Below, in pieces: positions 12,550 to 32,700 of a stretch of 54,599 nt of DNA (position 1 is its first letter; the number at the start of each line of letters is the position of its first letter). Below the pieces are notes generated by a model. It had not been told where the DNA came from. It saw nothing but the letters and a program-made list of their open reading frames with translations, and made no database searches. Source of the DNA: Vicinamibacteria bacterium (lineage in GTDB: Bacteria > Acidobacteriota > Vicinamibacteria > Vicinamibacterales > CAVVIG01); contig JBGOTP010000002.1 in the NCBI GenBank assembly GCA_041476545.1, forward strand, positions 1 through 54,599, in the 5' to 3' direction. The translations under genes were made by a program, and so were the position numbers.

Positions 12550-12611
12550 GCGGATCCCGATCACGGACCGGGAGAAGGCTCCTCGATGGTAGGCTGAGCA
12601 CGAACAAGAAG

Positions 12612-16104: not shown

Positions 16105-17709
16105 ATGACGGGCGCGCAGCGTCTCGCTCGGGTGGCCGTCGTCCTGGCGGTGGCAGCCATCGTCATCTTCGGTGTGACCCGGGGCCTCTTTGTCGCCGCC
16201 GCGGCGGATGCCTACGGATACGTGAGCCAGGCCGATCTCTGGGCCAGAGGCAGCCCGATCGTGCACCAGTCCTTTGCGCGCGAGATGACATGGCCCAACG
16301 CCGCCCAGACGCTGGCGCCGCTCGGCTACCGTCCGCGCACTGCTGATCCACGTGACACCGACATCGTGCCGACCTATTCGCCGGGACTGCCGATGCTGAT
16401 GGCGGTATTCAAGCTGGCCGGCGGGCCGCGGGCCGTGTTTCTCGTCGTGCCGCTCCTCGGCGGACTCGCCGTATGGGCCACCTATCTGATGGGGACACGC
16501 CTGGCCGGATCCCTGGTCGGCGCATCAGCCGCGATTCTCCTTGCCGCCAGCCCCACGTTTCTCTTCGAGGTCGTCTCGCCCACGAGCGATGTGCCGTGCA
16601 CCGCGTGGTGGGCGCTCGCGCTGGCGTGGCTCATGGTCGAGCGCCGATCGGCCGCGTTCGGCGCCGGCCTGGCCACGGGCCTGGCGATTCTGACCAGGCC
16701 GAATCTCGCGCCGCTCGCGGTGATTCCGGGCGCCGTGCTCGTGTGGCGCGCCGCAACCGAACGACTTCGCGGATCCGGTGGCTCTCTTCAGGCCACCCGG
16801 ATGCTGCTTTTCGCCGCCGGCTCCATTCCTGCCTGCATCGTTGTCGCGCTGATCAACCGGCGCTTGTACGGCGCGCCGTTCGCATCGGGGTATGGCCCGC
16901 TCGATGCTCTGTACAGCTGGTCGTACCTGTGGCCGAATCTTGCGCGCTATCCGCGCTGGATCGTCCAGACAGAGACGGTGGTCGTGCTCCTCGCGCTGGT
17001 CGCGCCGTTCGCGCTGCGAGCACACGCGTCGGCACCCGGCCGCGAAGGGTGGCCGCGCAGGCTTGCGATTGTCTGGTGGTGCTTCATTGCCGCAAACGTT
17101 CTGTCGTACATCTTCTATCTCCCGTTCGACGAGTGGTGGTACGTGCGGTTCCTGATGCCCGCGTATCCGCCGCTGCTCGTTCTGAGCTGCGCCGCGTTGT
17201 GGAGGCTGGTGTCGCCCCTCACGCGTCTGGCGATCGGCGCGAACGACCTCGCGGCGGCCACCGTCGTGGGGGCCGTCGCCTGGCACGGTGTGGCCTTTTC
17301 GACCGATCGCGGCGCGCAACTCCAGTGGATCGCCGAACAGCGCTACGCGACCGTCGGCAGATACATCGCTTCCACGCTTCCGGAACGCGCTGTCCTCATC
17401 TCCATGCAGCACAGCGGCGGGATCCGGTACTACTCGGGCCGGATCACGGTCCGGTACGACGTGATGCGGCAAACGGATCTTGATCTTGTGGTCGAGGAGT
17501 TACGGCGTCTCGGGTACTCGCCATATCTTGTGCTCGACGACTGGGAAGAGCCGCAATTCCGCCAGCGCTTCGAGGGACAGAGCGCGCTCGCCGGACTCGA
17601 TTGGATGCCGGTCGCCCGATTGGCTTCGGACCACGTGAGAATCTATGACACGGCCGACCGGCAGGCCGGCCGTCCGGATCGCCAGCGCATCCCGGAGACT
17701 ATTCCGTGA
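16105..17709 (+). CDS. polytopic membrane protein, GT-C-fold glycosyltransferase-like (GT39/ArnT-type)
   Basis: 534 aa with more than 10 hydrophobic segments. N-terminal loop AADAYGYVSQADLW, then TYSPGLPMLMAVF and ILTRPN, typical of PMT_2/ArnT-like enzymes. Confidence 0.6.
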   Translation: MTGAQRLARVAVVLAVAAIVIFGVTRGLFVAAAADAYGYVSQADLWARGSPIVHQSFAREMTWPNAAQTLAPLGYRPRTADPRDTDIVPTYSPGLPMLMAVFKLAGGPRAVFLVVPLLGGLAVWATYLMGTRLAGSLVGASAAILLAASPTFLFEVVSPTSDVPCTAWWALALAWLMVERRSAAFGAGLATGLAILTRPNLAPLAVIPGAVLVWRAATERLRGSGGSLQATRMLLFAAGSIPACIVVALINRRLYGAPFASGYGPLDALYSWSYLWPNLARYPRWIVQTETVVVLLALVAPFALRAHASAPGREGWPRRLAIVWWCFIAANVLSYIFYLPFDEWWYVRFLMPAYPPLLVLSCAALWRLVSPLTRLAIGANDLAAATVVGAVAWHGVAFSTDRGAQLQWIAEQRYATVGRYIASTLPERAVLISMQHSGGIRYYSGRITVRYDVMRQTDLDLVVEELRRLGYSPYLVLDDWEEPQFRQRFEGQSALAGLDWMPVARLASDHVRIYDTADRQAGRPDRQRIPETIP

Positions 17710-17738
17710 TTCGCCGTGACACGGAAGGAATCGAGATC

Positions 17739-19892
17739 ATGAGAACTCTGACCGTCGCTGTCGGTGTGTATGTGCTTGTCGCGATTGTGCCGGCGTGCCG
17801 CTCGGCAGTCGACGCCCCACGGCCCGTGGACATGCAGCGGATCGTCGCGGCCGACACTGAGCCGGGCAGCTGGCTCACGCACGGACGGACCTTCGGCGAG
17901 CAGCGCTTCAGTCCGCTTGCGCGCGTGAACGGTGACACGGTCGGCCGGCTCGGCCTCGCCTGGCAGTACGAATTGAAGACCAGCCGCGGTGCTTCGGCCA
18001 CGCCGATTGTCGCCGACGGCGTAATGTACGTCACGTCGGCGTGGAGTCTCGTGTACGCCTTGGACGCGAAGACCGGCCGAGAAATGTGGGTCTACGATCC
18101 CAAGGTGGATCGAACCGTCGGTACCAGTGCTTGCTGCGACGTCGTAAACCGCGGCGTCGCGATCTACGAAGGCAGGATCTTCGTCGGTGTGCTCGACGGC
18201 CGGCTCGTGGCGCTCGATGCCAAGAGCGGTTCGGTCGTGTGGGAGAAAGCGACCGTCGATCAGTCGCTGCCGTACACGATCACGGGCGCGCCGCGCGTCG
18301 CGAACGGCCTCGTCTACATCGGCAACGGCGGCGCCGAGTACGGCGTCCGTGGCTACGTGTCGGCGTACGACACGACGACCGGCGACCTGAAGTGGCGCTT
18401 CTATACGGTGCCCGGCGATCCGGCGAAGGGGCCCGACCACGCGGCTTCGGACACCATCATGGCGAAGGCGACAGCGACGTGGACGGGCGAGTGGTGGAAG
18501 CTCGGCGGCGGCGGCACCGTCTGGGATGCGATCGTCTACGACCCGGACTTCGATCAGCTGATCATCGGCGTCGGGAATGGTTCGCCGTGGAACCGGCAGA
18601 TTCGATCGCCCAAGGGCGGTGACAACTGGTTCCTCTCGTCCCTCGTGGCCCTCGATGCGAGAACCGGCGTCTACAAGTGGCACTATCAGACGACGCCGGG
18701 GGATTCGTGGGATTTTACGGCCACGCAAGCGATCATCCTCGCGGATCTCACGATCGATGGGACGCGCCGGAAGGTCGCGCTTCAGGCGCCCAAGAACGGG
18801 TTCTTCTACGTGATCGATCGGCAGGACGGTCGCCTCGTGTCCGCCGCTCCGATCCTGCCGATGTTGCAGGCCAAAGACACACCACCTGGCGCTCCGCTCA
18901 GTTGGGCGTACGCCGTGGACCAGGCGAGCGGGCGTCCGATCGAAAATCCCGGGGCGCGTTACGTCGGCCAGACGGCGGTCGTTCGCCCGTCGCCGCTTGG
19001 CGCGCACAATTGGCACCCCATGGCGTTCAGTCCAGAGACAGGCCTCGTGTACATCCCCGCGCAGGACATGGCGCTCGACTTCACAACCGACTCAAAATTC
19101 CTCGTCCGGCCCGGGCGATGGAACACGGGCACGGTGCATGCGCCGCTGCCCGATGATCCGAAGGTCCGGGAGGCGATCAGGAACGGATCGAAAGGGTTTC
19201 TCATCGCCTGGGATCCGGTGAAGCAAAAAGAAGCGTGGCGCGTGGAGCACAAAGGTCCGTGGAATGGCGGCACGCTCGCGACTGCTGGCAACCTCGTGTT
19301 CCAAGGCACCGTCGATGGCCGTTTCGTCGCGTTCGACGCGAAGACCGGCCGGCAGCTCTGGGAATACGACAACCAGCTGGCCACGCTCGCGGGTCCGATC
19401 GCCTACGAGATCGATGGCGAACAGTACGTCGCAGTGCTTGGAGGGTACGGGAGCGTCTTCTATCTGTACGCCGGCGCGCTCCTTCCCACTCCAGGAGCAG
19501 GGGCCTCCGTGAACGGACGCGTCTTTGTCTACAAACTCGGCGGGACGGCCGAGCGGCCCGTGATTTCGAAGCCGGCGTCGCCGATGCCGCAGCCTCCCGC
19601 GATCGTGGCGTCAGCGGCGGACGTGGCGCGTGGCGCGGCGCTCTACTCGCAATTCTGCGCGGTGTGCCATGGGGCGGGGGTTGTCTCTGCGAATGTAATC
19701 CCGGACCTTCGTCGATCCCGGCGGCTGCAGGACGACACCGCGTGGCAGCAGGCTGTCTCGGGTGGAACGCCAGGGATGCCGGCCATGCCGCGCTTCAAAG
19801 AGTTCCTGACGCCAGCTGACGCCAGCGCGATCCGCGCCTACGTTGCCAGCGAGGCGGCCCAGCAGTACGCGGCAGGTGCTGCGACGCGCTAA
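17739..19892 (+). CDS. quinohaemoprotein alcohol dehydrogenase (PQQ methanol/ethanol family with C-terminal cytochrome c domain)
   Basis: ATG 17739 is preceded by GGAAGGA. Has a signal peptide, the vicinal disulfide motif SACCDVVNRG, then GGAEYGVRGY, GNGSPWN and DSWDFTAT. The C-terminal haem motif is FCAVCHG. Confidence 0.9.
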   Translation: MRTLTVAVGVYVLVAIVPACRSAVDAPRPVDMQRIVAADTEPGSWLTHGRTFGEQRFSPLARVNGDTVGRLGLAWQYELKTSRGASATPIVADGVMYVTSAWSLVYALDAKTGREMWVYDPKVDRTVGTSACCDVVNRGVAIYEGRIFVGVLDGRLVALDAKSGSVVWEKATVDQSLPYTITGAPRVANGLVYIGNGGAEYGVRGYVSAYDTTTGDLKWRFYTVPGDPAKGPDHAASDTIMAKATATWTGEWWKLGGGGTVWDAIVYDPDFDQLIIGVGNGSPWNRQIRSPKGGDNWFLSSLVALDARTGVYKWHYQTTPGDSWDFTATQAIILADLTIDGTRRKVALQAPKNGFFYVIDRQDGRLVSAAPILPMLQAKDTPPGAPLSWAYAVDQASGRPIENPGARYVGQTAVVRPSPLGAHNWHPMAFSPETGLVYIPAQDMALDFTTDSKFLVRPGRWNTGTVHAPLPDDPKVREAIRNGSKGFLIAWDPVKQKEAWRVEHKGPWNGGTLATAGNLVFQGTVDGRFVAFDAKTGRQLWEYDNQLATLAGPIAYEIDGEQYVAVLGGYGSVFYLYAGALLPTPGAGASVNGRVFVYKLGGTAERPVISKPASPMPQPPAIVASAADVARGAALYSQFCAVCHGAGVVSANVIPDLRRSRRLQDDTAWQQAVSGGTPGMPAMPRFKEFLTPADASAIRAYVASEAAQQYAAGAATR

Positions 19893-20038: not shown

Positions 20039-20087
20039 CGAGCGCGCGCTTGATCGATGCGTTCAGCACCGGGCCGGATGCCCGGTC
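20039..20087. repeat. 49-nt degenerate copy of the 3' coding end of the MBL gene (partner at 21808-21855)
   Basis: CGAGCGCGCGCTTGATCGATGCGTTC (26 nt) is identical at 20039-20064 and 21808-21833. Weaker similarity follows, including GATGCCCG. The two copies are direct repeats bracketing the tannase gene. Confidence 0.7.
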
Positions 20088-20154
20088 CATCCCGTAATTC
20101 CGACCGCTCGCGGTCGCGAGGTGGTAGGCTGCTCTGGTTACTCAGAGGAGACTC

Positions 20155-21744
20155 ATGAAGCGTCTGCAATTGCCAGCTCTCATCGCCGCCGCGGGGTTCT
20201 GTCTCGCCGCTCGCGCGGAGGCCACCTCATGCGAGGACCTCACCAAGCTCGTGTTGCCCGCGACGACAATCACGAGCGCGCAGATGGTCGCCGCCGGAGC
20301 GTTTACCCCGCCGCCGCGGCCGCCCGGGCCGGTCGACGACGATGTGAACGCGCCGACTGGTGGGGCCGGAGCGCGTGGCGGCGCGCCGGGGGGACGCGGC
20401 CGCGGCGGTCGCGTTGTGAGCTATCGGACGCTGCCCGAGTTCTGTCGAGTGGCGGCGATGCTCAGGCCGTCGAGTGACTCGGAGATCAAGGTCGAAGTCT
20501 GGATGCCCGCCACCGGCTGGAACGGGAAGTTCGAGGGCGTCGGCAACGGCGGATGGGCCGGCACGATCGGGTACGCCGCGATGGCCGCGGCGGTCGCCGG
20601 AGGCTACGCGACGGCGAGCACCGATACCGGCCACGTCGGCGGCAGCGCGTCGTTCGCCCTCGGTCATCCGGAGAAGCTGGCCGACTTCGGCTATCGCGCC
20701 GTGCACGAGATGACCGTGCAAGGCAAGGCGATCGTCGACGCGTTCTACGGCGGGGCGCCGAAACTCGCGATCTGGAACGCGTGCTCGACCGGCGGCCGGC
20801 AGGCGATCACCGAAGCCGAGCGGTATCCCGCTGACTACGACGGGATTGTGGCCGGGGCGTCCGCTATCTACAGCATGGCGATTCACGCCGCGCGCGTGGC
20901 GATCAACGTGATCGCCCATCGAACGGACGACAGCTACATCCCGCCTGCGAAGTACGCGATGGTGCATGCGGCCGTCCTCGAGGCCTGCGACGCGCTCGAT
21001 GGCGTCAAGGACGGCGTGATCGACGATCCGCTGCGGTGCCGCTTCGATCCGAAGGTTCTCAAGTGCAAGGACGCGGACGCCCCGACGTGTCTGAACAACG
21101 CGCAGGTCGAGACCATGCGTGCGTTGTATGCACCGCTCAAGGAGATTCCCGGACAGCCACCGCTCCTGCAGCCGGGGACCGAGCTTGGATGGGCGACGCT
21201 CGCCGGTCCGAGCCCGTTGAGACTTTCCGTCGATGCGTTCAAGTTCGTGGTGTTCAAGGATCCAAGCTGGGACTGGCATCGGTTCAACGCGACCACCGAC
21301 ATCGCTCGCGCGCTCAAGGCCGACACCGGCGCGGTCAGCCTCACGGACCCGAATCTGAAGCCGTTCTTCGATCGCGGTGGCAAGCTCCTCATGTATCACG
21401 GCTGGGCCGATCCTCAGGTCCCGGCGCAGAACAGCGTGCGCTACTTCAATGCCGTCGTGAAGACGGCGGGGCAGAGCGTCGTCGGCAAGTCGATTGAACT
21501 CTACATGGTGCCGGGCATGGGCCACTGCCGCGGCGGCGCGGGCGCCGACACGTTCGACAAGATGGCCGCGATGGAGCAATGGATCGCGCAGGGGACGGCA
21601 CCCGCCCAGATCGTTGCCTCTCACTCCACCGCTGGCGCGGTGGACCGCACGCGTCCACTGTGCCCGTTCGGTCAGGTCGCCAAATGGAAGGGCATTGGAA
21701 GCACTGACGAGGCGGCGAACTTCGCCTGCGTCGCCGAGCGTTGA
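20155..21744 (+). CDS. tannase / feruloyl esterase family alpha/beta hydrolase (exported)
   Basis: RBS AGAGGAG upstream of the start, and a signal peptide. Has WNGKFEGVGNGGWAG, ASTDTGH and the nucleophile motif NACSTGGRQ, with family-typical cysteines. Confidence 0.88.
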   Translation: MKRLQLPALIAAAGFCLAARAEATSCEDLTKLVLPATTITSAQMVAAGAFTPPPRPPGPVDDDVNAPTGGAGARGGAPGGRGRGGRVVSYRTLPEFCRVAAMLRPSSDSEIKVEVWMPATGWNGKFEGVGNGGWAGTIGYAAMAAAVAGGYATASTDTGHVGGSASFALGHPEKLADFGYRAVHEMTVQGKAIVDAFYGGAPKLAIWNACSTGGRQAITEAERYPADYDGIVAGASAIYSMAIHAARVAINVIAHRTDDSYIPPAKYAMVHAAVLEACDALDGVKDGVIDDPLRCRFDPKVLKCKDADAPTCLNNAQVETMRALYAPLKEIPGQPPLLQPGTELGWATLAGPSPLRLSVDAFKFVVFKDPSWDWHRFNATTDIARALKADTGAVSLTDPNLKPFFDRGGKLLMYHGWADPQVPAQNSVRYFNAVVKTAGQSVVGKSIELYMVPGMGHCRGGAGADTFDKMAAMEQWIAQGTAPAQIVASHSTAGAVDRTRPLCPFGQVAKWKGIGSTDEAANFACVAER

Positions 21745-21796
21745 CTCGCGCCTCGGAAGGGTGGCTCGCGCTGAGGTGCGAGGATGGTGCGTTCGT

Positions 21797-22873
21797 TTAG
21801 CGGAATCCGAGCGCGCGCTTGATCGATGCGTTCGGCAGTAGCCTGATGCCCGATCGATCGAGCCGCCACTTGTCCATGTACTGCTCGGGCTTGATCAGCT
21901 TCACGCCAGACGTCGACAGCAACGCTTCGAGTCCCGCATCGACGAACGGCCGCTGGACCCCCGAGAGAAACGGCGTGAAGTAGCTGTCCCAGTGGACCGG
22001 CAGGTACGCCTTTGGTTTCAGAACGGGCAGCACCAGTTTCGCGACGGCCGATCCGCCGGTGCCGATCCAGAGGTCGACCGACTCCAGTCCGGCGTCGCGC
22101 AGCGCGGCCTTCAGGTTCTCGACCGGCGCGCCGTAGTCGACGCCGTCAACGACAATCGGAACCGTGAGGTCCACCGCGCTCGCGGAGTTCTGGTAGAACC
22201 AGCTGAAGTGTCCATCGGGTCCGTCAACAGTGAATAGAAATCCACGGACCCCGCCGCCATTGGGAAAATCCTCGGCGACCCCCGCGCGCAAACCGCCTGT
22301 CGCCGGATCGAGCCGAGGTGGTCCCGGTAGTTCCACCGCGTTGTGCTGCTCGGGATTGGTCGACGGGCTGCCACTGTGGTTCCAGCGCACAACCCTCATC
22401 GTCACGCCCTCGGCGAGCTCCACCCTTTCGCCGCCGTTGACGGCCGTGCACCGTTCGGCTGGCACGCCCTGCGCGACCGCCTGAAAGCACGTCGTCTTCG
22501 GCCCGATGATCCGTGCGCCCGAAAGCTTCGACCAGGCGGCCGTGTCGAATGAATGATCGAAATGGCTATGGCCGCTCAAGAGCAGGTTGACGCTGGATGG
22601 TCCGCCGAGCGCGGTCAATACGTTGGTGACCGCGGGAACATCCGACGAGAACATCTGCCGAGTGTTGGCGAGGCCTCCGCCGCCACCGTAGAACGTGTTC
22701 TGCGGGATGCGGGTGACGAATCCATCCGTGATCACACGAAGGGGCCCCAGCTCGTAGTAGAGGTTGCTCACCGAGAACCAGGTGATGTCCACGAACGAAG
22801 GCGCGGCGCCGCCGGCCGGTACGGTGACCGCGAGGGCGGCGACAAGTGCGCCAGCGCAAGCCGCCTTTCGCAT
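21797..22873 (-). CDS. MBL-fold metallo-hydrolase (exported)
   Basis: A start at MRKAACAGALVAALAV (ATG 22873) gives a signal peptide. The metal motif is LLLSGHSHFDHSFD (HxHxDH). Confidence 0.7.
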   Translation of the reverse strand: MRKAACAGALVAALAVTVPAGGAAPSFVDITWFSVSNLYYELGPLRVITDGFVTRIPQNTFYGGGGGLANTRQMFSSDVPAVTNVLTALGGPSSVNLLLSGHSHFDHSFDTAAWSKLSGARIIGPKTTCFQAVAQGVPAERCTAVNGGERVELAEGVTMRVVRWNHSGSPSTNPEQHNAVELPGPPRLDPATGGLRAGVAEDFPNGGGVRGFLFTVDGPDGHFSWFYQNSASAVDLTVPIVVDGVDYGAPVENLKAALRDAGLESVDLWIGTGGSAVAKLVLPVLKPKAYLPVHWDSYFTPFLSGVQRPFVDAGLEALLSTSGVKLIKPEQYMDKWRLDRSGIRLLPNASIKRALGFR

Positions 22874-22940
22874 GACGCCTATCTCGCGCCGGACTCGCGC
22901 TCCTGCAGCCGGGCGCCCCGCAGGATGTCGCCGATCATCA

Positions 22941-25097
22941 TCATCCGCCAATCTTGAACGCGACGAGTTCGCCGCTGTAACCCGACCCGCCGATGGCGAC
23001 GACGATGTATTGTTTGCCGTTCAGCATGTAGGTCATCGGACCGCCGCCCTGGGGCGCCGGCATGTAGACGGCGCCGACTTCCTTGCCGGTCGCCTTGTCG
23101 TACGCGCGAAGCATCGCGCCGCGCTGACCGGACGGCGTGGGACCAAAGCCCGCCTCGCCCGCGACGACCAGGGTCTTCGTCACCAGTTGACCCACCGTGC
23201 CGGGGCGACCTGTGCGAGGAATCGTGACGTCCTTGAGTGCGACGTTGCTCGTGATGTTGGCGGGCGTGTCGCCGTGCGCGATTTGCCAGAGGATCTCGCC
23301 TTTGTTCAGATCGATCGCGGTGATCGACCCGTACGGGGGCTTCATGATCGGCAGACCCTTCACTGTCAGCCCTGCGCCGCCTCCGCCCTCGCCGCCGCCC
23401 TCAGCCGCTGCTGCCGCAGGTCGCGCTGGTGGCGCTGCAACGGTGGGTTGCGCCGATGAGGCTGCGACGGCGGGTCGTGCTGTTGGTGCCGCGGCCGTAG
23501 ATCGCGCCGCCGGTGCCGGCGCGGTGAGCGCGCCCCCGCCTGCGCCAGCCGTCGTTCGCGCGCCAGAGGCCGCGTTACCCTGGACATAGGCCAGATCGTT
23601 CTTCGACGGATCGCGCGGCGGCACGAGTCCCAACTGGCCGAGTGATTTGTTCGACGAGACATAGAGAATGTGCGTGTCCGGATCGTACGAGCCGCCCGGC
23701 CAGTTGGTCCCGCCGCCACCCGATCCCAACACCAGCGTCGCGAGTGGCCCTTCGATCTTGCTCACGACCGGCGGCGTGAAGACGGGACCGAGCTTGTACT
23801 TGGTCATCATCTGCATCGCCTCGGCGCGCAGTTCCGGCGTGAAGTCGATGAGATCGTCGGCGACAAATCCCTGCCGGTCGTAGTTGAACGGTTTGCCGTG
23901 CGCGTCGAGCGGAAACGGCTGTGTCGGCGAGTACCACTCGCCGGGCACGTCGCCCCTGGCGACGGGTCGTTCCTCAATCAGCCACACCGGTTGCCCGGTT
24001 ACGCGATCGAGCACGTACATGAATGCCTGCTTGGTCGGTTGCGCCAGGGCCTTGACCGTCCGGCCGTTGACCACGAGGTTGACGAGGATCGGCGGACACG
24101 GGATGTCCATGTCCCAGATCCCGTGGTGCACGAGCTGATAGTGCCACTTCCGTTTTCCGGTTTGCAGGTCGACGGCCACGATGCTCTCGCCAAAGAGATT
24201 CGCGCCCGGCCGGCTCGCGCCGAAGTAGTCGCCGGTCGGCAGTTCCACCGGCAGGTAGGCCAGGCCGAGTTCCTCGTCGACGCTCATCTGCGCCCACACG
24301 CCGGCGTTGCCGGTGTACGACCACGAGTCTTTTTCCCACGTGTCGTTACCGTACTCGCCCGGTGTGGGGATGGTGTGAAAGATCCAGAGGCGCTTGCCCG
24401 TCTTCACGTCGAAGCCGCGGACGTACCCTTTGACGTTCGACTTGCCCGTGGGCACGCCGCCGGACTTGTGCGCGGCGCCGACGATGACGACGTTTTTGGC
24501 GATCGTCGGCGTGGCGTGCAGACCGATTTCACTGCTGAGGGGATCAATCGCTTGGTCCATGTCCTGCTTCAAATCGACCGAGCCGTTTCGCCCGAAGGTC
24601 CGGATCACCTCGCCGGTCGTGGCGTCGAGCGCGATCAGCCGGTAGCCGGGTGTGACGTAGAGGATGCGCCGCTCGCGACCGTCGGTCCAGTAGGCCAGGC
24701 CCCTGCCGGAAAGCTGACGCGGCGCCGCGGCGCCCCGCGCGCCCTCGTTCTCGCTGTGCATCCACAACAACTCGCCCGTGGCTGCGTCGATCGCGACAAC
24801 CGCTCGCCGGGAGCCCCCGGTGGAATACAACACGCCGTTCACCATCAGCGGTGTGGATTCGAACTGATACTCGGGCCGTGGACCGAGGCTGTCGGTCTTG
24901 AACCGCCACGCGACTTCGAGCGTGCTGAAGTTGGACGCGTTGATCTGGTCGAGGGGCGAATAGCGCGTGTTGCCCAAATCGCCGCCATACGTCGGCCACT
25001 CGCCGTTCTTCGCGCCCGACTGCGCCAGGAGACCTGCGCCGCCAGCGAGCAGGCAGGCGACGATCCAGAGCGCGGAGGGTCGAGGGTGTCGAGTCAT
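22941..25097 (-). CDS. PQQ-dependent dehydrogenase, glucose/quinate/shikimate-type propeller, exported (no N-terminal TM bundle)
   Basis: Start at MTRHPRPSALWIVACLL (ATG 25097). Has WPTYGGDLGNTRYSPLDQIN and HHGIWDMDIPCPPIL, which resembles the mGDH block HHDLWDMD. It carries an unusual Ala/Pro/Gly-rich insertion. Confidence 0.8.
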   Translation of the reverse strand: MTRHPRPSALWIVACLLAGGAGLLAQSGAKNGEWPTYGGDLGNTRYSPLDQINASNFSTLEVAWRFKTDSLGPRPEYQFESTPLMVNGVLYSTGGSRRAVVAIDAATGELLWMHSENEGARGAAAPRQLSGRGLAYWTDGRERRILYVTPGYRLIALDATTGEVIRTFGRNGSVDLKQDMDQAIDPLSSEIGLHATPTIAKNVVIVGAAHKSGGVPTGKSNVKGYVRGFDVKTGKRLWIFHTIPTPGEYGNDTWEKDSWSYTGNAGVWAQMSVDEELGLAYLPVELPTGDYFGASRPGANLFGESIVAVDLQTGKRKWHYQLVHHGIWDMDIPCPPILVNLVVNGRTVKALAQPTKQAFMYVLDRVTGQPVWLIEERPVARGDVPGEWYSPTQPFPLDAHGKPFNYDRQGFVADDLIDFTPELRAEAMQMMTKYKLGPVFTPPVVSKIEGPLATLVLGSGGGGTNWPGGSYDPDTHILYVSSNKSLGQLGLVPPRDPSKNDLAYVQGNAASGARTTAGAGGGALTAPAPAARSTAAAPTARPAVAASSAQPTVAAPPARPAAAAAEGGGEGGGGAGLTVKGLPIMKPPYGSITAIDLNKGEILWQIAHGDTPANITSNVALKDVTIPRTGRPGTVGQLVTKTLVVAGEAGFGPTPSGQRGAMLRAYDKATGKEVGAVYMPAPQGGGPMTYMLNGKQYIVVAIGGSGYSGELVAFKIGG

Positions 25098-27172
25098 CGG
25101 CGCGCTCCGGCGGACGTCTGGTCCACGGCCGCGGACGTGAGGCCCTTGGCCTTCCGCTCTTGCACCAGCCGGTTGTACTCCGCATCGTCCAGATACACTA
25201 CGTTGATCCAGAGCTGTAGCATGTCGTCCACGCTGCGTTCGCCAAACCCCGCCCACATCGCGGGATCAGGATTCCGCCGGTTCGCCGACGTGTTGTCGTG
25301 CGTGCCGATGATGTGGAGAACCGTTCCGGCCGGCAGCAACGGCGACACGTCGTCGGCGTACAGATACGAGACGTGCCAGTTGAAATCGAAGTGATCCACG
25401 GAGCTGAGCACCTCGACGGCGTTGTCGAGTTTGATGGCTTCGAGCGTCATCCCGCGACCGCGCATGTGCATGTGCGGCTGAAACGCGTCGATACGTGCCG
25501 CGCGCGGCAACCGGAAGTAGCCGTCGTGGCGGACGACGGAATTGGGCGGGATCTCCAGTTCGTCGTTCGGCACGTTGCGGAAGTTGATCGAGCGGACCTC
25601 GTACTTCGGTGTCACGCCTTTCGGATAGAAGATGAACGCGATCTGGGTCTGATCCGTTTCTTCTTTGCCGATGGCGAAGTAGTGCATGTCGAATCGCAGG
25701 CGCGTGCCTGCCTTGAGGAGTCGTCCGGTGTTGTCGTTGAAGGTGTCGCCGTACTTCCCGACGGCGTACTCGTGCAACTGGATGCCTGTTTCCGGCGTGC
25801 CGGCCGGGGCGTCTGGCTCAATCGCGTAGACCACCGTGTGGTGGACGATGCGCCGATTGCTCGGGCGCACTTCCATCGCCTTGATCCAGCGGTCCTCGGT
25901 CAACTTCGTGTCGGCGAAGTAGTCGATCCACCAGTCCGGGCCCTTCGGATACATCGTGTGCATCTTGTCCATCTTCACGACAAGATCGGGTTTGCCGATA
26001 TGCCACACGTCTTCGGGACCAAAGACCTGAAGCGACGGCATGTCGGCGGCATTGCCCCGCGGCGCCTCGGCGTCCACCCAACGGACGATGGTCGCCACCT
26101 GATCGTCGGTCAGCGATAGATCGTTCTTGTACTGCCGGATGCCGACGCTCCGATCCAGGTGCCACGGCGGCATTTCCCGGCTGGACACACGCTGCTTGAT
26201 GGACCGGGCCCACGGCCGCACTTCCTCGTAGGTCGTGAGCGCCATCGGTGCACCCGTGCCCGCGTGGTGACACTGCGTGCATTTGGCCTGGAAGATCGGC
26301 GCGACGTCTTTGGTGAATGTAGGCGTCGCGCGCGACAGTGTCGACACTACTGACCGGGCCGTGTTCCTGTCGGATGCGCCACCGACAACGACTTTCAGTT
26401 GAACGTTCGTCCAGCAGCAGTGGTAGCCGAAGTTCCCCGCGGATTCACCGGAGCCGTCGTCGACGACCGCGAGCAGCGTGTATTCACCCGGGGCGCTGAA
26501 ACGAGCCGTGGCTGCGGCCTGTCCGTCGCGCACATTCTGGACGGCTGGCGTCATCGTGACGGTCCCGGGTCCGCGGTACTTCGACCACTCCACTGTCATC
26601 CCAATCGGCGCCCCTCGCCGGCGCGGCAATCCGTCGTCGGTCGCCTTGATGGCGAGCGTCGCGGTTTCGTCGGCAGCGATGCGGAGATCGGGCTGCACCG
26701 TGACGACGGGAGGTGTGTTCGAGTTGATGTTCTCGCTGTTGCCGCCGCGCGTCGTGCGGAGCCGGTCGATCTGCCAGACACGGTTCAGCGTGCCGGCAAC
26801 CAGTTCCGTGTTGCCGCGTATCGTGAGGGACCACACGAGCTTGGTGGTCTCTCCGAAGTTTTTCGGGACGACCACGCGAAAGACGTCCTTGTGCCTCCGC
26901 GTGTCGAAGTGCGTGGGCTGACCGCGATCGGGTCCCGGTTCGAAGCGATTCTCCGGCCCGACGGGGACCTCGACCGCCTCTTCGTAGTTCCGATTCAGAT
27001 AGCCGAACCACATGTTGTACGAGCCGTCCGGGTTGATGTCGAACCCTTCGTATACGGGTGCGACGCCCTGGCCCGTCCAGTGGCGCGTTGGCGCAACGGC
27101 CTGACCCTTGACCAGCGTGGGCACGACGAGGCCGGCGATTGCGAGGGCGGCGATGATCCGGGTGATCTTCAT
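25094..27172 (-). CDS. exported multidomain protein: N-terminal beta-rich/Ig-like region, CxxCH haem-c motif, C-terminal PHM/DBH-like copper-monooxygenase-type domain (hypothetical function)
   Basis: Start at MKITRIIAALAIAGLV (ATG 27172, GGAGAGGAG upstream). CTQCH is encoded at 26281-26267. IVHHTVVY has its HH at 25843-25838, followed by FDMHYF. HMHM lies at 25474-25463, followed by DDMLQLW. The stop overlaps the next gene's start (ATGA at 25094-25097). Confidence 0.65.
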   Translation of the reverse strand: MKITRIIAALAIAGLVVPTLVKGQAVAPTRHWTGQGVAPVYEGFDINPDGSYNMWFGYLNRNYEEAVEVPVGPENRFEPGPDRGQPTHFDTRRHKDVFRVVVPKNFGETTKLVWSLTIRGNTELVAGTLNRVWQIDRLRTTRGGNSENINSNTPPVVTVQPDLRIAADETATLAIKATDDGLPRRRGAPIGMTVEWSKYRGPGTVTMTPAVQNVRDGQAAATARFSAPGEYTLLAVVDDGSGESAGNFGYHCCWTNVQLKVVVGGASDRNTARSVVSTLSRATPTFTKDVAPIFQAKCTQCHHAGTGAPMALTTYEEVRPWARSIKQRVSSREMPPWHLDRSVGIRQYKNDLSLTDDQVATIVRWVDAEAPRGNAADMPSLQVFGPEDVWHIGKPDLVVKMDKMHTMYPKGPDWWIDYFADTKLTEDRWIKAMEVRPSNRRIVHHTVVYAIEPDAPAGTPETGIQLHEYAVGKYGDTFNDNTGRLLKAGTRLRFDMHYFAIGKEETDQTQIAFIFYPKGVTPKYEVRSINFRNVPNDELEIPPNSVVRHDGYFRLPRAARIDAFQPHMHMRGRGMTLEAIKLDNAVEVLSSVDHFDFNWHVSYLYADDVSPLLPAGTVLHIIGTHDNTSANRRNPDPAMWAGFGERSVDDMLQLWINVVYLDDAEYNRLVQERKAKGLTSAAVDQTSAGARR

Positions 27173-27283
27173 GATGCGGATTGTGCCACTCCTCTCCGGC
27201 GCCTTCAAGATATTCAGGCGCGAATCGATGCCCGATTCCGCTACACTTTCCGGCAGGACTTCTACCTTAAGGGAGAACGAGCC

Positions 27284-29029
27284 ATGCCAGTTCGCACGCG
27301 GATCGCGATGACTCTTGCCTGCGCCCTGGCCGCTTCGGCGGTCATCGGCGCGGCTGACTACACGCTGACGGTCAGCCAGGACCGCCTCAACAACGCGATG
27401 AACGAACCGCAGAACTGGTTGCTGATGAATGGCGACTACGGCTCGACGCGGTACTCGAAGCTCACCCAAATCAACCGCGAGAACGTGAAGAACCTGCGGA
27501 TGGTCTGGGCCATGGCTCTTGGCGGGATGCAGGACGTGGGACAGAACGGTCCGGAGAACGAAGTGAATCCGCTCATCGACAACGGATTCATGTACACGAC
27601 CGATGGCTGGGGGACGGTCTACAAGATCGACGTTCGTACGCCGGACCACGGAGAGTTCAAGTGGGTGGCGGACCTCGCGGTGCAGCACGAGGGCAACGCG
27701 TCGAGGACCCGCGGAATCGCCCTCTGGGAAGACCGTGTGCTCGCGAACCTGCCGGACGGTCGCGTCGTCGCGCTCAATCGCGACACCGGCGAGATTGTGT
27801 GGGACAAGAAGCTCACTGCCAAGACCGAGTTCGGCGGCCAGGAAAAGTTCTTCACGGCGCCGCTCGTCGCCGACGGTAAGGTGATCGTGCAAAACGGGGC
27901 CGGAGACGCCGGCACGCGCGGGTGGGTGGCCGCGCTCGACGTGAAGACGGGCAACGAACTGTGGCGCTTCTACACGGTGCCGAAGCCGGGCGATCCCGGG
28001 AGTGAAACCTGGAAGGACGACCACAACGCGTGGAAGACCGGCGGGGGCGGTATCTGGCAAACCGGATCGTACGACCCGGTCCAGAAACTTTATATCGTGG
28101 GCACCGGCAATCCGTATCCGATCTACGATCCGCAGTTCCGTCCTGGCGACAACCTGTACACCAACTCGGTCATCGCGCTCAACGTCGACACGGGCAAGCT
28201 GGCGTGGCATTTTCAATACACGCCCAACGACTCCTGGGACTTCGACGAAGTGGGCGTCCACATGCTGTACGACACGACGATCAACGGCGAGAAGCGCAAG
28301 GTCGTCGGCCACTACGGGCGCAACGGTTTCTACTACTCGCTCGACAGGACGACCGGGAAGTTCATCAAGTCCGAGAAGTACGTCAACGACCTGAACTGGA
28401 CGAAGGGCATCGATCAGAAGACCGGAAAGCCGATGGAGTACAGCGCGAAGCTCGACGTGCAGCTCTATAACCCCGAGGCGCGTGCCTTGCGCGGGGACGG
28501 GATGAAACGCACGTGTCCGACCTGGCACGGGGGGATTGCCCACCAGCCGCTCGCGTTCAACCCGGTCAAGGGCATCGCGTACGGCGTCGGGACCGAAGGG
28601 TGCTTCTCGCAGAACGGCGCGGAGGTGAAGTCACGATCTCCGGACGGCGGGATCGACAACCGCGGAAGTCAGCAACGCAAATACACGAGCGACCTGTATT
28701 ACGGCGCGGTCACCGCGTTCGACGCCGTCAATCACAAGGTGCTCGCCAAGGCGGTCACCGGCATCGAGATCCGATCCGGCGTCACCGCGACAGCGGGCGG
28801 CGTCGTGTTTACCGCATTGCAGGACGGGTGGATTGTCGCCTACAACGACGAGACGCTCGAGGAACTCTGGCGCTTCAATCTGGGCACGCCGCTCAAGGGA
28901 TCGCCAGTGACCTACGCGGTGGGACCGAAACAGTATCTGGCGGTGCAGACGAGCGGCCGGCATCAGCATCCGGTGAAATTCGACAACCTCCAGAACTCGA
29001 GCTACCTGTTCGTCTTCGCCCTGAACTAA
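27284..29029 (+). CDS. PQQ-dependent dehydrogenase, methanol/ethanol family, divergent (not canonical MxaF/XoxF/ExaA)
   Basis: ATG 27284 is preceded by GGGAGA, and a signal peptide is present. Has WLLMNGDYGSTRYSKLTQIN, GTGNPYPIYDPQFRPGDN and NDSWDFDEVG. There is no Cys-Cys pair at the expected position (HEGNASRTRGIALW). Confidence 0.85.
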   Translation: MPVRTRIAMTLACALAASAVIGAADYTLTVSQDRLNNAMNEPQNWLLMNGDYGSTRYSKLTQINRENVKNLRMVWAMALGGMQDVGQNGPENEVNPLIDNGFMYTTDGWGTVYKIDVRTPDHGEFKWVADLAVQHEGNASRTRGIALWEDRVLANLPDGRVVALNRDTGEIVWDKKLTAKTEFGGQEKFFTAPLVADGKVIVQNGAGDAGTRGWVAALDVKTGNELWRFYTVPKPGDPGSETWKDDHNAWKTGGGGIWQTGSYDPVQKLYIVGTGNPYPIYDPQFRPGDNLYTNSVIALNVDTGKLAWHFQYTPNDSWDFDEVGVHMLYDTTINGEKRKVVGHYGRNGFYYSLDRTTGKFIKSEKYVNDLNWTKGIDQKTGKPMEYSAKLDVQLYNPEARALRGDGMKRTCPTWHGGIAHQPLAFNPVKGIAYGVGTEGCFSQNGAEVKSRSPDGGIDNRGSQQRKYTSDLYYGAVTAFDAVNHKVLAKAVTGIEIRSGVTATAGGVVFTALQDGWIVAYNDETLEELWRFNLGTPLKGSPVTYAVGPKQYLAVQTSGRHQHPVKFDNLQNSSYLFVFALN

Positions 29030-29038
29030 CGTCGCGTT

Positions 29039-29056
29039 GCAGGGCTGAAGCCCTGC
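29039..29056. terminator. GC hairpin GCAGGGC-TGAA-GCCCTGC between convergent genes
   Basis: 7-bp GC-rich stem with a 4-nt loop, located in the 28-nt gap between the stops at 29029 (+) and 29058 (-). No U-tract, so it may be a REP element rather than an intrinsic terminator. Confidence 0.45.
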
Positions 29057-29057
29057 A

Positions 29058-29648
29058 CTACTTAGGAAACTCGCTGCAGGTCTCGACGTCCGATCCCCAG
29101 AAGGCGATGCAGGCCGCGCGATCCATCGCGCCCTTGCCGATCACCTTGGCAAAGAGAAAGTCGGTGAGCTGCTCGATCTCGCGCGGCTGCAGCGTCGCCG
29201 CGGGATCGGGCAGCTCCAGGTTGAGCCGCTTCAGATCCGCCGCCGTGATGTTGTTGCATCGACCGTCGCTATAGGCAAGGCGATCGAAGGCCGGCATCTG
29301 CTTTCCCGGTCGTCCGCATTTGATGGCGCGGACAATGGCGTCGCGATCGAGGCGAGTGATGCGGAGGTTGGCGCCGTCGGGCATCTGCGTGTCCATCTTT
29401 CGTCCATCGCCTGCCCAGCCGTGGCACGACTGGCAGTCGGCCTTCTGGCGGTAGATTCGCATGCCGGCGGCCACGTCTGTCGGGTCTGGCGCGGGCGCCT
29501 GTGCGTGCGCGACCGGCCCGCCAACCATTACGATCCCGGTGACCCCGGTGACCCCGGTGACAACGACGAGGAGCGACAGCGCAAGCGCGCGACGCGGTGG
29601 CGTCAGCGACCGTGTCCAGAAGCGAAGAGCTCGCGTGCGTGTGTTCAA
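29058..29648 (-). CDS. c-type cytochrome (mono-haem, membrane-anchored or exported)
   Basis: 196 aa with a TTG start at 29648 (uncertain). Has a hydrophobic N-terminal segment and the haem motif DCQSCHGW. Confidence 0.75.
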   Translation of the reverse strand: MNTRTRALRFWTRSLTPPRRALALSLLVVVTGVTGVTGIVMVGGPVAHAQAPAPDPTDVAAGMRIYRQKADCQSCHGWAGDGRKMDTQMPDGANLRITRLDRDAIVRAIKCGRPGKQMPAFDRLAYSDGRCNNITAADLKRLNLELPDPAATLQPREIEQLTDFLFAKVIGKGAMDRAACIAFWGSDVETCSEFPK

Positions 29649-29788
29649 GCGTGTCTCCTGTCTGCCGCCGACGCTATCATTCCTCTTGCGTGCCCGGCAA
29701 GCTTGCAGGCTTTGGCTCTAGCGGGATGCCACAGACCATCGAGCCACGGGCATTGCTCACCAGACAGAGACCCTCTACTCTTAGCCCG

Positions 29789-32700
29789 ATGCCGGCCAGC
29801 CGCCCGTTCACAGCCGACGCCGCCGCGCGCCGCGCCATCGTCGAGGATCTGCAGCAGACGCTCGTCGTCGAAGCCGCGGCGGGTACCGGCAAGACCACCG
29901 AACTCGTCAACCGGATCCTTCGCATCCTCGAGAGCGCGCCACCGATTGGCGCGAAGATGAAAGAGATCGTCGCCGTCACGTTCACGGAGAAGGCGGCGGG
30001 TGAACTGAAGCTGCGGCTGCGCGAGCGGCTGGAAGAGGAACGCGCCCGCCTTCGCTCGCCAGGTGGGCCTGGTGGGGCGGGTGAGCCGGGTGGGGCAGGC
30101 GGGGCGGGCAGGGCAGGCACAGACACCGTGCTCGCGCGGTTGGACAACGCCCTCGAGACGCTCGAAGAAGCGCACGTCAACACCATTCACGGTTTCTGCG
30201 CCGAGCTGCTGCGGGAGCGTCCCGTCGAAGCGCGTGTCGATCCGCTGTTCACCGTGCTCACCGAAGCGCAGGCCGATCGCCTCTATCAGCGTGCGTTCCA
30301 CGGCTGGCTGCAGCAGGCGCTGGCCGATCCACCAGAGGGGCTGCGGCGCGCCCTGCGCCGCACGAGCGCCGCGACGTTCGGCAGCGGCGACGGCGATGGA
30401 CCCGTGGACCGCGTGCGGGGAGCCGGCCGGATGCTGGCCGAGTGGCGCGACTTCGACGCGCCGTGGCGGCGTCCGCCGTTCGATCGGGTCGCGTGCCTCG
30501 GTCGTCTCATCGCCAGTCTTCATCACCTGGCGGACCTCACCGCGAAGCCTTCTTCGGAGCGCGACAACCTGTTCATCGACACAGACGCGGTGCGCCGGCT
30601 GAGTCAACAGATTCGTCTCGAGGAGTCGTTCGGCCACCGCGATCTCGATGGGTGGGAAGCCCGGCTGGTCGACCTGGTTCGCGATCGCGGTCTGTCACGG
30701 ACGCGGAAGGGCAGCGGCTATAAGTTCGGTCCGGACGCGACCCGAGTGGACGTCCTCTCCGCGAGAGATGCCTTCTTCGCTGGCCTGCAGCAGTTCAAAC
30801 GCGACGCGGACGCCGATTTGGCCGCCTGCCTTCAGCAGGAACTGGTGGGAGCGACCGCTCGCTATCAGGCCCTGAAGGTCGCCGCCGGCGCGCTCGACTT
30901 TGCCGATCTGCTCGCGCGCGCCCGCGATCTCATCCGAGACGACGGCAGCGTGCGCCGGCATCTGCAATCCAAGTTCACGCGCGTCTTTGTCGACGAGTTC
31001 CAGGACACGGATCCGATTCAGGCCGAGATCGTGATGCTGCTCGCGGCCGACAATCCGGACGAGACCCGCTGGGAAGAGATCGCGCCGATTTCCGGCAAGC
31101 TCTTCATCGTCGGCGATCCGAAGCAGGCCATCTATCGTTTTCGCGGCACCGACGTCGGCACGTACTGGCGAGTCAGCCGGCAGATTGAGCGCCGCGGCGG
31201 GCAGGTGCTGCAACTCACGAAGAGCTATCGCAGTGTGCCGGAGATTCAGCGATTCATCAATGCGGCGTTCAGTGTGGAGATGACCGCCGACGAATATACG
31301 TTGCAGGCGGGTTACGTGCCGCTGTCCGAGCATCGTCTTTCGGAGACGTCGCAGCCGCCGATTGTGGTGTTGCCAGTACCGCGGCCCTATTCCTCGTACG
31401 CGTCCCGTGGGTTTGTCAAAGCGTCAGCCAAGGCGATCGAGACATCTCTTCCCGACGCGGTCGGCGCGTTCATTGCCTGGATCGTGGACGAAAAGAACGG
31501 CTGGACCGTTGCCGAGCGCCAGCCGGATGGTGTAGAGGCCCGCGTGCCGGTCCAACCGCGTCACGTCGCCGTGCTCTTTCGGCGCTTCGTGAATTTTGGC
31601 GAGGACATTACGCGTCGCTACACGGATGCGATCGAGGCGCGCGGGATTCCGCATCTGCTCGTGGGCGGCAAGGCGTTCCACGGACGAGAGGAGGTCGAAA
31701 CGATGCGCGCGGCGCTCGCCGCTATCGAGTGGCCAGACGATGAGCTGTCGGTGTTTGCGACGTTGAAGGGCTCGCTCTTCGCCATAGACGACGAGAAACT
31801 CCTCGAGTTCCGCCACCGGTTCAAGACGTTCCACCCGTTCCGCGTGCCGAAGGAGCTCGGTGGCAATCGTGGCGAGGACCTCGTGCTCACCGCGGAACCG
31901 ACGACACATCTGATGCCGATTGCCGAGGCGATGCGGCTGCTGCAGCAGTTGCACCGGGCGAGAAACTACCGGCCCGTCGCCGACACGATCGGCCGGTTGC
32001 TGTCGGAGACGCGCGCGCACGTCGGTTTCATTCTGCGGCCGGCGGGGGAGCAGGCGCTCGCGAATGTGCTCCATGTGGCGGAGCTCGCGCGGCAGTACGA
32101 AGCGAACGGTGGCATTTCGTTCCGCGGATTCATCGACGAGTTGCGCGAGGCGGCCGAGTCCGAGGGAGCGGAGGCGCCCATTCTCGAGGAGAGCAGCGAC
32201 GGCGTCCGGCTGATGACGGTCCATAAGGCGAAGGGGCTCGAGTTTCCTGTCGTGATTCTGGCCGACATGACCTGCAAGATGAACCGTCCCGACGCCAGCC
32301 GGTATCTCGATGCGAGCCGGCGGCTGTGCGCGATGAAGATCGGCGGCTGGACACCGGACGAAGTTCACGAACACGAGGCTCAAGAAGTCGCGCGCGATCA
32401 AGCCGAAGGCGTGCGGCTGGCGTACGTCGCGGCGACGCGCGCACGCGATCTGCTCGTCGTGCCGGCGCTTGGCGACGAGCCGTGGGAGGGCGGATGGTGC
32501 GGTCCGCTCAATCGCGCGATCTACCCGCCGATGGCGTCGCGCCGGACGGCCGGGCGCGGGCCCAAATGTCCCGCGTTCAAGTCGAAGGACACCGTGCTGC
32601 TGCGGCCGAACGACGAGCCTGCGGGTCCGTCCACGGTCTGTCCCGGGCGGCATGACTTCCCGGAGTCCGGCTATTCCCTCGTCTGGTGGGACCCCACGCC

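Follow-up and report, generated by a model that had tools for sequence, protein, structure and literature searches.

A predicted haem c-fused copper protein of the PHM/DBH superfamily, encoded beside PQQ dehydrogenases in a Vicinamibacteria bacterium

Results

The copper-haem gene

The window analysed here is a stretch of 54,599 nucleotides from a Vicinamibacteria bacterium (GenBank assembly GCA_041476545.1, contig JBGOTP010000002.1, positions 1 to 54,599 of the forward strand). On its minus strand, at 25094..27172, lies an open reading frame (ORF) of 692 amino acids plus stop codon, named here the copper-haem ORF. A reading of the sequence made without database searches, called the original prediction below, had taken its product for an exported fusion of haem c with a copper monooxygenase resembling peptidylglycine monooxygenase (PHM) and dopamine beta-hydroxylase (DBH), translationally coupled to a pyrroloquinoline quinone (PQQ) dehydrogenase. 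The predicted domains are, from the N-terminus, a signal peptide, Ig-like domain 1, Ig-like domain 2, a cytochrome c, the CuH subdomain, the CuM subdomain and a C-terminal helix.

The Sec-type signal peptide was recognised by eye in the sequence. It covers residues 1-23 (MKITRIIAALAIAGLVVPTLVKG; 27104..27172, minus strand), of which residues 2-15 form a helix in the AlphaFold model, and the predicted cleavage site reads MKITRIIAALAIAGLVVPTLVKG/QA. When the window sequence was read again, the ORF and all motifs lay where the original prediction had placed them. These are ATLAIKATDDGLP at residues 171-183, CTQCH at residues 298-302 (nucleotides 26281-26267), HH at residues 444-445 (25843-25838), FDMHYF at residues 494-499, HMHM at residues 567-570 (25474-25463) and DDMLQLW at residues 649-655, M651 lying 82 residues after H569. 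A frameshift artefact was ruled out as the origin of the fused ORF by 31 genome loci and 120 database proteins with the same fusion. The AlphaFold2 model of the full protein, built on a 101-row alignment, had a mean predicted local distance difference test score (pLDDT) of 78; in the copper core most 10-residue blocks scored between 80 and 97.

The predicted two-copper core

The unit common to nearly all relatives of the protein comprises residues ~280-680, that is, the cytochrome and the C-terminal region, and we refer to it as the cassette. Within it, a PHM/DBH-like N-terminal catalytic subdomain, CuH, was assigned to residues ~390-516 (25625..26005, minus strand) from Foldseek, profile and conservation data, and a PHM/DBH-like C-terminal catalytic subdomain, CuM, to residues ~520-662 (25187..25615, minus strand) from a PF03712 match (E 0.012), profile and conservation data. 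All six copper ligands are there, H444, H445 and H497 in CuH and H567, H569 and M651 in CuM.

When the full AlphaFold model was compared with the PDB by Foldseek, the top 30 matches were all DBH or PHM, with a probability of 1.00. The best was human DBH (4zel, E 4.7e-13), and about 28 PHM entries followed with E values from 8e-12 to 3e-8. Template modelling (TM) scores for PHM, relative to the target, were 0.53-0.65, or about 0.6 over ~300 columns. The C-terminal region of the model has the PHM/DBH double beta-sandwich that the original prediction had led us to look for.

Similarity could also be detected at the sequence level. A profile of 49 diverse cassettes, searched against the PDB, matched DBH at E 6.9e-10 and PHM at 1.3e-7. 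In this comparison the vvHH of the family fell on TVHHM of PHM and LVHHM of DBH, H497 (in qlHY) on QVHYG of PHM and EVHYH of DBH, and the CuM stretch pHmHlrGk on VHTHHLGK of PHM and LHTHLTGR of DBH. M651 (DDM; family consensus DEM, in tvdeM) aligned with SSDEMC of PHM in a weak, collinear stretch obtained with the subdomain profile. Taken by itself, the C-terminal subdomain gave a profile whose matches did not reach significance, though this collinear DEM alignment appeared.

Among 88 representatives at 32-52% identity, H444, H445, H497, H567 and H569 were invariant and M651 was kept in 97%, while His and Met positions elsewhere in the window protein were mostly unconserved. The copper and haem ligands are the most conserved residues of the cassette family. 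The expectation that the HH/H/HxH/M pattern would be kept in distant homologues was borne out, with five His residues aligning with the PHM/DBH ligands and the Met doing so more weakly.

Searches with the single sequence gave little: NCBIfam returned no match, phmmer against the PDB nothing relevant, and Pfam only sub-threshold matches to a cytochrome family and to PF03712. PF01082 was not matched by the window protein in the Pfam search. A profile of 24 close homologues (66-78% identity) had no match in the PDB, which was reached by sequence only with the profile of diverse cassettes at 30-50% identity. At E <= 0.01, PF03712 was matched by 27 of 49 relatives and PF01082 by 2 of 49. The two Pfam families had been proposed as a check on the copper domain, and the result was divided: PF03712 is found in over half of the relatives, but the window protein itself stays below the threshold and lacks a PF01082 match.

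One could suppose that the His/Met pattern has arisen by chance and that the beta-sandwich at the C-terminus has no catalytic role, serving for instance as a binding module, a copper store or a copper chaperone. It is true that the single sequence scores under the Pfam cut-offs and that a sequence search of the PDB with it came to nothing. However, DBH and PHM come first by fold with a probability of 1.00, the diverse profile finds DBH at 7e-10 with the ligands in register, and no residues of the family are better conserved than these ligands. Coincidence is strongly disfavoured by these data and we regard it as very improbable. Given the Foldseek matches, the profile alignments and the PF03712 and PF13442 matches in relatives, the C-terminal 300 residues are best read as a divergent PHM/DBH-type two-copper core with the full ligand set. 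The predicted homology to PHM and DBH is at the superfamily level, beyond the curated Pfam boundaries, and we hold the assignment of cofactors and fold with high confidence.

The window protein is not a peptidylglycine hydroxylase. The residues of PHM that bind the peptide carboxylate, which we take to be R240, N316 and Y318, are replaced by Q565, Q653 and W655, positions that vary across the family, and this identity was rejected for that reason.

The cytochrome c domain and the Ig-like half

A class-I mono-haem cytochrome c was assigned to residues ~283-370 (26063..26326, minus strand), immediately ahead of the CuH subdomain. Its haem-binding motif is C298-T-Q-C301-H302 and its axial ligand M334 lies in MPPW. 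The isolated cytochrome piece matched PF13442 at E 5.9e-6 and 27.0 bits, which equals the cut-off of that family, and 33 of 49 relatives matched it on their own. M334 is present in 100% of the 88 representatives, and the haem-binding residues C298, C301 and H302 in 98%. Read from the sequence, the protein has the CxxCH motif, the distal axial Met and the signal peptide of a class-I c-type cytochrome. The CxxCH motif of the original prediction proved to belong to a true domain of this class, as judged by PF13442 and the conserved axial Met.

The N-terminal half consists of two predicted beta-sandwiches. The first (residues ~35-130; 26783..27070, minus strand) had no Pfam match and is family-specific; the near-invariant H31 lies just before it and the likewise near-invariant H94 inside it. 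The second is Ig/PKD-like (residues ~153-265; 26378..26716, minus strand), with weak matches to PKD_4, Big_1 and Ig_3, and ends in GYHCCW. A separate AlphaFold model of residues 1-274 showed two beta-sandwiches with a pLDDT of 82, for which Foldseek found generic tandem Ig-like matches only. A DOMON-like reading of this half was rejected, since Foldseek gave no DOMON, CBM or cupredoxin match and the Pfam hints were weak ones to PKD and Ig families. Ig-like domain 2 recurs as a repeat in giant proteins (P0134, P0137).

In many Terriglobia and Bryobacterales the Ig-like half is encoded by a separate, adjacent gene, and in 31 genome loci it is fused. The fusion in the window marks the Ig-like half and the cytochrome-copper part as apparent functional partners, and the Ig-like half probably binds the substrate or docks a partner.

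Besides H31 and H94, the near-invariant residues of this half include the vicinal pair C252-C253 in GYHCCW (YHCCW at residues 250-254, 26411-26425). The pair could be a disulfide between neighbouring cysteines, or these residues could make up a further site for a metal or for redox chemistry; model confidence is low in the loop that precedes GYHCCW. As an example of the split form, locus L051 (5968-8095) has two overlapping genes in place of the single ORF. The first encodes a 277-aa Ig-like protein and runs into the start of the second, which encodes a 437-aa cytochrome-copper protein; both products carry a signal peptide. The same two-gene form occurs in many of the loci L020-L077.

Size, distribution and architectures of the family

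More than 2600 homologues came up in a word-indexed search, the best 120 of which are ~690 aa long and 66-79% identical to the window protein. All are named 'hypothetical' except one 'mono/diheme cytochrome c family protein', and those with a stated taxon belong to Vicinamibacterales. When representatives clustered at 50% identity were searched exhaustively, 16755 clusters matched at E <= 1e-3; at 1e-10 and 1e-30 the numbers were 9282 and 1997. The repeated Ig-like domain accounts for part of these counts.

The commonest architecture is a protein of 400-460 aa with the cytochrome and copper cassette alone. In 7 of 10 long relatives an AhpC/TSA-Redoxin domain stands ahead of the cytochrome, and this fused thiol-redox domain is also an electron-donating module. 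The window subfamily, found mainly in Vicinamibacterales, Bryobacterales and Terriglobia, has the cassette with an added Ig-like half.

The Redoxin-fused proteins are among P0135, P0187, P0208, P0217, P0218, P0240 and P0243, and other long relatives add EF-hands, an M56 peptidase, an alpha/beta-hydrolase or CBM48. The domain content of the long relatives suggests thiol- or peroxide-linked variants of the cassette. Tandem or nearby cassette paralogues are common elsewhere (L084, 5539-8245; L024, L048, L058, L059), which indicates that the family expands within genomes. Of two minimal-family loci, the gene upstream in L084 is such a tandem paralogue, and the one upstream in L085 is not related to the Ig-like N-terminal domain. 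One contig labelled as a Bifidobacterium breve metagenome-assembled genome (L007, CALQBJ020000203.1) carries a 70%-identical copy of the gene followed by a PQQ dehydrogenase; this contig is almost certainly mis-binned or mislabelled.

A few relatives carry the JGI label 'Copper type II ascorbate-dependent monooxygenase, C-terminal domain'. The bare homology to PHM is not new, because database pipelines already put the PF03712 label on some relatives. No characterised member of the family, either bacterial PHM-like or cytochrome-fused, was found by full-text literature searches; in the papers covered, PHM/DBH-type enzymes appear as animal, ascorbate-dependent and involved in hormone and neurotransmitter synthesis. 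The only bacterial mention that we met is a PHM-like function reportedly discussed for a polyketide cluster of a magnetotactic bacterium.

The coupled PQQ dehydrogenase and its association with the cassette

The TGA of the copper-haem gene overlaps the ATG of the next gene in an ATGA (25094..25097, minus strand; cgATGAct). This gene (22941..25097, minus strand) encodes an exported PQQ beta-propeller dehydrogenase of 718 aa (PF01011, E 1.2e-180) with no CxxCH motif and no membrane anchor. Its best NCBIfam match is TIGR03074 (glucose/quinate/shikimate), at 371 bits against a cut-off of 833. The match begins at model position 150, so the membrane domain is absent, and the nearest solved relatives are PQQ alcohol dehydrogenases. 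The overlap with a PQQ dehydrogenase gene described in the original prediction is confirmed, and the sub-threshold TIGR03074 match suggests a glucose dehydrogenase-like enzyme. An Ala/Gly/Pro-rich low-complexity insert of 72 residues (507-578; 23364-23579) interrupts the propeller and splits the Pfam match in two.

Divergent from the copper-haem gene, and separated from it by 111 nt, is a second PQQ gene (27284..29029, plus strand), whose 581-aa product belongs to the alcohol/methanol dehydrogenase family. It matched PF01011, has relatives in the PDB and reached 428 bits with TIGR03075 (E 4e-128), just under the 480-bit cut-off. It also has no haem domain. A PQQ propeller dehydrogenase that carries neither haem nor membrane anchor depends on an outside acceptor of single electrons, which is usually a c-type cytochrome. 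The coupled enzyme lacks both and the divergent one lacks haem, and such an acceptor would be needed here.

Is the pairing of the two genes a general one? Neighbourhoods were compared at 79 loci from different species genomes, the sample covering the flanks around each locus and not whole genomes. PQQ dehydrogenases were the only widely recurrent neighbour family, at 30 of 83 loci, while the next family reached 10. Within 6 kb a PQQ dehydrogenase was present at 30 of 79 loci (38%), namely 17 of 31 of the fused type and 13 of 48 of the split or partial type, and the PQQ gene was immediately adjacent at 11 fused-type and 3 split or partial loci. The density of PQQ genes per 10 kb fell from 1.84 within 600 nt to 0.48 at 0.6-3 kb and 0.15 at 3-6 kb. 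The density next to the gene is 12-fold that at 3-6 kb (Poisson P ~1e-12 against the outer-bin rate, for loci that are not phylogenetically independent). This PQQ link was measured for the Ig-bearing subfamily.

At least four arrangements and at least three PQQ subfamilies occur among the partner loci. In arrangement A, a cytochrome-PQQ gene stands immediately upstream, often with a CHRD-domain gene before it (8 loci). In arrangement B, a glucose dehydrogenase-like PQQ gene overlaps downstream, as in the window. Elsewhere a glucose dehydrogenase-like gene lies 2 kb downstream, or the PQQ genes are convergent or divergent. The CHRD-domain gene (~150 aa) was seen at L003, L013, L016, L017, L029, L032, L040 and L076 (for example L016, 516-971) and also at P0096, P0018 and P0062. 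In most such loci it lies upstream of the PQQ-cytochrome gene, abutting it in L016 and L017 and with a gene between in L003.

The reverse test took the coupled PQQ enzyme as its starting point, with the 80 metagenomic proteins that matched it best (63-73% identity). A cassette gene was found within 4 kb of 12 of them (15%), no other family exceeded 5 loci, and the cassette family was the only recurrent neighbour. The association that the original prediction wished to see checked is not random, as the density gradient and the forward and reverse tests agree. Of the refuting conditions named in that prediction, none of those checked here (fold, conservation of the ligands, gene association) told against it. 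The same prediction had called the electron chain self-contained. With a PQQ gene near 30 of 79 loci and a cassette near 12 of 80 PQQ relatives, it is neither self-contained nor obligate. PQQ enzymes are genuinely linked to the cassette, but as facultative partners. The haem c and copper cassette, elsewhere Redoxin-fused or alone, appears from its architectures to be a portable electron-accepting module.

These counts also bear on the source of the electrons. A monooxygenase of this type might draw its electrons from the common pool of periplasmic cytochrome c or from the bc1 complex, and the PQQ genes might lie nearby through shared regulation or mere abundance of paralogues. That the majority of loci have no PQQ neighbour, and the three minimal-family loci checked none at all, would fit such a supply, as would the other c-type cytochromes of the window (the 196-aa cytochrome c and the quinohaemoprotein alcohol dehydrogenase described below) and the NCBIfam family 'acido-empty-quinoprotein', which points to large families of PQQ-propeller paralogues in Acidobacteria. 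Shared regulation or abundance would not easily give a 12-fold density of PQQ genes beside the gene, two families each of which is the only recurrent neighbour of the other, a 4-nt overlap here and same-strand immediate adjacency in ~15 genomes in several independent arrangements; nor does it account for a coupled PQQ enzyme without haem domain or membrane anchor. We think it unlikely that the pool is the feed and the adjacency incidental.

The variety of partners raises a further question, whether the copper sites oxygenate anything. If haem c took up electrons from periplasmic dehydrogenases or thiol-redox domains, and the copper sites used them only to turn O2 (or H2O2) into water or peroxide, with no organic compound oxygenated, the protein would act as an electron sink or oxidase. 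The cassette is paired with chemically unrelated donors (three PQQ subfamilies and fused AhpC/TSA domains), the family profile alignments show no conserved substrate-binding residues equivalent to those of PHM, and in the neighbour family counts no substrate-making or substrate-using gene is conserved near the cassette, all as expected of an oxidase. On the other hand, the conserved ligand set is the full PHM-type one including the CuM Met, which serves C-H activation in PHM and DBH, the existence of an Ig-like partner, as a domain or as a gene of its own, suggests that a particular substrate is bound or is a macromolecule, and bacteria already own dedicated periplasm-facing oxidases. A pure oxidase is improbable in our judgement, and the same holds for the periplasmic overflow or detoxification route that it would provide.

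Other genes of the window

Downstream of the PQQ stop codon, at a distance of 67 nt, is a gene for an exported metallo-beta-lactamase (MBL)-fold hydrolase of 358 aa (21797..22873, minus strand) with the motif HSHFDH and a signal peptide, as the original prediction had stated. It gave weak NCBIfam matches to a metal-dependent hydrolase and to the UlaG lactonase, and matched Lactamase_B_2 at E 0.04. MBL-fold genes also lie 3' of the PQQ gene at two related loci, P0003 and L038. Those genes are of the Lactamase_B_3 type and unrelated to the MBL of the window, and the MBL as a conserved orthologous third gene of the operon was rejected. Relatives of the window MBL were found at none of the 80 PQQ-enzyme loci. 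That it acts as a lactonase is speculation, and the idea of a sugar or LPMO-like system is unsupported.

Further genes of periplasmic redox type surround the pair. A type-II-like quinohaemoprotein alcohol dehydrogenase with a PQQ propeller and a C-terminal cytochrome c is encoded at 17706..19892 (plus strand; TIGR03075 E 1.6e-188, above the cut-off; PF13442), an exported protein of the tannase/feruloyl-esterase family at 20155..21744 (plus strand; PF07519, E 3.8e-101) and a mono-haem cytochrome c of 196 aa with the motif CQSCH at 29058..29648 (minus strand; PF13442, E 2.7e-8), convergent with the 581-aa PQQ gene. Judged from these annotations, the copper-haem gene lies in a periplasmic redox island formed by the genes from 17706 to 29648. 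The neighbouring genes had been thought to hint at plant phenolic or polysaccharide material as substrate, and nothing that we tested supports this. A scan for promoters and terminators gave counts at or below the shuffled expectation.

An AddB-like gene (11913-15986, plus strand; 1357 aa, with a C-terminal PD-(D/E)XK nuclease) and an AddA-like gene (29597-33430, plus strand; 1277 aa, with UvrD helicase and PD-(D/E)XK) are separated by a gap of ~13.6 kb that holds the whole redox island and a PMT_2 glycosyltransferase. AddA and AddB genes normally adjoin each other, and the redox island may therefore be an insertion between them. At 2144-6537 (minus strand) are genes for a B12-binding radical-SAM enzyme, a class I/II aminotransferase and an AMP-binding (acyl-adenylate-forming) enzyme, possibly an operon for lipid or small-molecule modification with no relation to the copper-haem gene.

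Discussion

We propose, with a probability of roughly 0.55, that the copper-haem protein is a periplasmic haem c-fused two-copper monooxygenase of the PHM/DBH superfamily, with haem c as its reductant and PQQ enzymes as donors. Type-II copper monooxygenases need an external reductant. In PHM and DBH, ascorbate supplies CuH with electrons singly, and O2 is activated at CuM to hydroxylate a C-H bond. Both the haem c within the chain and the periplasmic location speak for a reductant carried by protein, not ascorbate, and most likely haem c takes the place of ascorbate here.

In the proposed mechanism, haem c would deliver two electrons, one at a time, to CuH. CuH would hand them on to CuM, which would bind O2 and hydroxylate a C-H bond of the substrate, while the Ig-like half would hold the substrate or a partner. 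The electron donor would be the translationally coupled PQQ enzyme first and perhaps the divergent PQQ enzyme too, so that oxidation of an alcohol or aldose would pay for the oxygenation (substrate to PQQ to haem c to CuH to CuM/O2). For the claim that the PQQ enzyme is the physiological donor at this locus we see slightly less than even odds. The complete circuit is put forward tentatively and is rather doubtful as a whole: an ascorbate-free periplasmic path from a haem-less PQQ dehydrogenase through the fused haem c and CuH/CuM to hydroxylation of an inert C-H bond in an extracellular or periplasmic substrate held by the Ig-like half. In such a circuit the hydroxylation product may itself be a substrate of the dehydrogenase, the cycle paying for itself.

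Several results weigh against our proposal. The whole window protein scored 21.7 bits with PF13442 against a cut-off of 27, and its PF03712 match (E 0.012) had 15.6 bits against a cut-off of 23. The peptidylglycine-binding residues of PHM are not conserved, so that its chemistry is not simply transferable. As to the PQQ link, 62% of the genome loci have no PQQ dehydrogenase within 6 kb, for 85% of the enzymes closely related to the coupled PQQ dehydrogenase no cassette gene lies within 4 kb, and the minimal 420-aa family had no PQQ neighbour in three loci checked. Acidobacteria have many PQQ-propeller paralogues, and the kinship of the loci makes the Poisson P overstate their independence.

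Like PHM, the catalytic core of PAM (1PHM, 1OPM, 1SDW), the window protein has a core of two beta-sandwiches (Foldseek E ~1e-11, TM ~0.62), the CuH ligands HH...H and the CuM ligands HxH...M in the same order, and a DEM-type methionine motif. The spacing of the ligands is 52/70/82 here versus 64/70/70 in PHM. Unlike PHM, to which it is 11-14% identical, the window protein is bacterial and periplasmic, has a cytochrome c fused ahead of CuH and two extra Ig-like domains, and is without a PAL lyase partner. The best structural and profile match was to the group of DBH, tyramine beta-hydroxylase and MOXD1 (4ZEL), which share with the window protein an N-terminal beta-sandwich region before the core. 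In the window protein, however, the N-terminal domains are only generic Ig-like ones and not DOMON, a haem c domain is inserted, and the DBH dimerisation domain is absent. Counterparts in the databases are the ~420-aa bacterial entries named 'cytochrome c' and the entries with Redoxin, cytochrome c and Cu2_monoox_C, which have the same cassette with the same ligands at 32-52% identity, but to which the window subfamily adds the Ig-like half. It is set apart from the animal enzymes by its fused cytochrome c, by its place in a bacterial periplasm, by the Ig-like partner and by the pairing with PQQ or Redoxin proteins.

There is also a functional analogy, and no closer relation, to the fungal systems of cellobiose dehydrogenase (CDH) or AA12 with lytic polysaccharide monooxygenase (LPMO), in which a sugar dehydrogenase, a cytochrome domain and a copper oxygenase follow one another. 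In fungi, PQQ-dependent AA12 dehydrogenases with a cytochrome domain can reduce copper LPMOs. The window enzyme has the PHM fold with two mononuclear sites, in contrast to the single histidine-brace copper of LPMOs. The earliest conserved His, residue 31, is predicted to lie ~8 residues after the mature N-terminus, which does not fit a histidine brace. Its cytochrome is of type c and fused to the oxygenase, not to the dehydrogenase as in CDH and AA12, and its PQQ enzyme belongs to the 8-bladed propeller family (PF01011) and is not of the AA12 type.

Two bacterial precedents resemble the proposed electron path. As in methanol dehydrogenase (MDH) with cytochrome cL and in type II quinohaemoprotein alcohol dehydrogenases, a PQQ propeller would give single electrons to a c-type haem. 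As in the electron recycling proposed for methanotrophs from MDH to particulate methane monooxygenase (pMMO), alcohol oxidation would re-supply a copper monooxygenase. The difference would be that the acceptor haem here sits in a soluble PHM-like enzyme, and not in a respiratory cytochrome or a membrane-bound copper monooxygenase.

The cassette defines a very large bacterial family in which a predicted PHM/DBH two-copper core is hard-wired to a c-type cytochrome. If the haem replaces ascorbate, the family would offer a natural self-reducing version of a much-debated enzyme, with the haem as a means of starting and observing the long-range electron transfer from CuH to CuM. Such an enzyme would further be a tractable candidate for biocatalysis, since its reductant would be a cheap alcohol or sugar. 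If the whole circuit is true, it would be the bacterial counterpart, on an unrelated fold, of the coupling between dehydrogenases and LPMOs in fungi. For the Acidobacteria themselves, replacement of ascorbate by haem would mean that these abundant soil bacteria own periplasmic C-H oxygenases of a new class and that their many orphan PQQ dehydrogenases have a new physiological electron acceptor.

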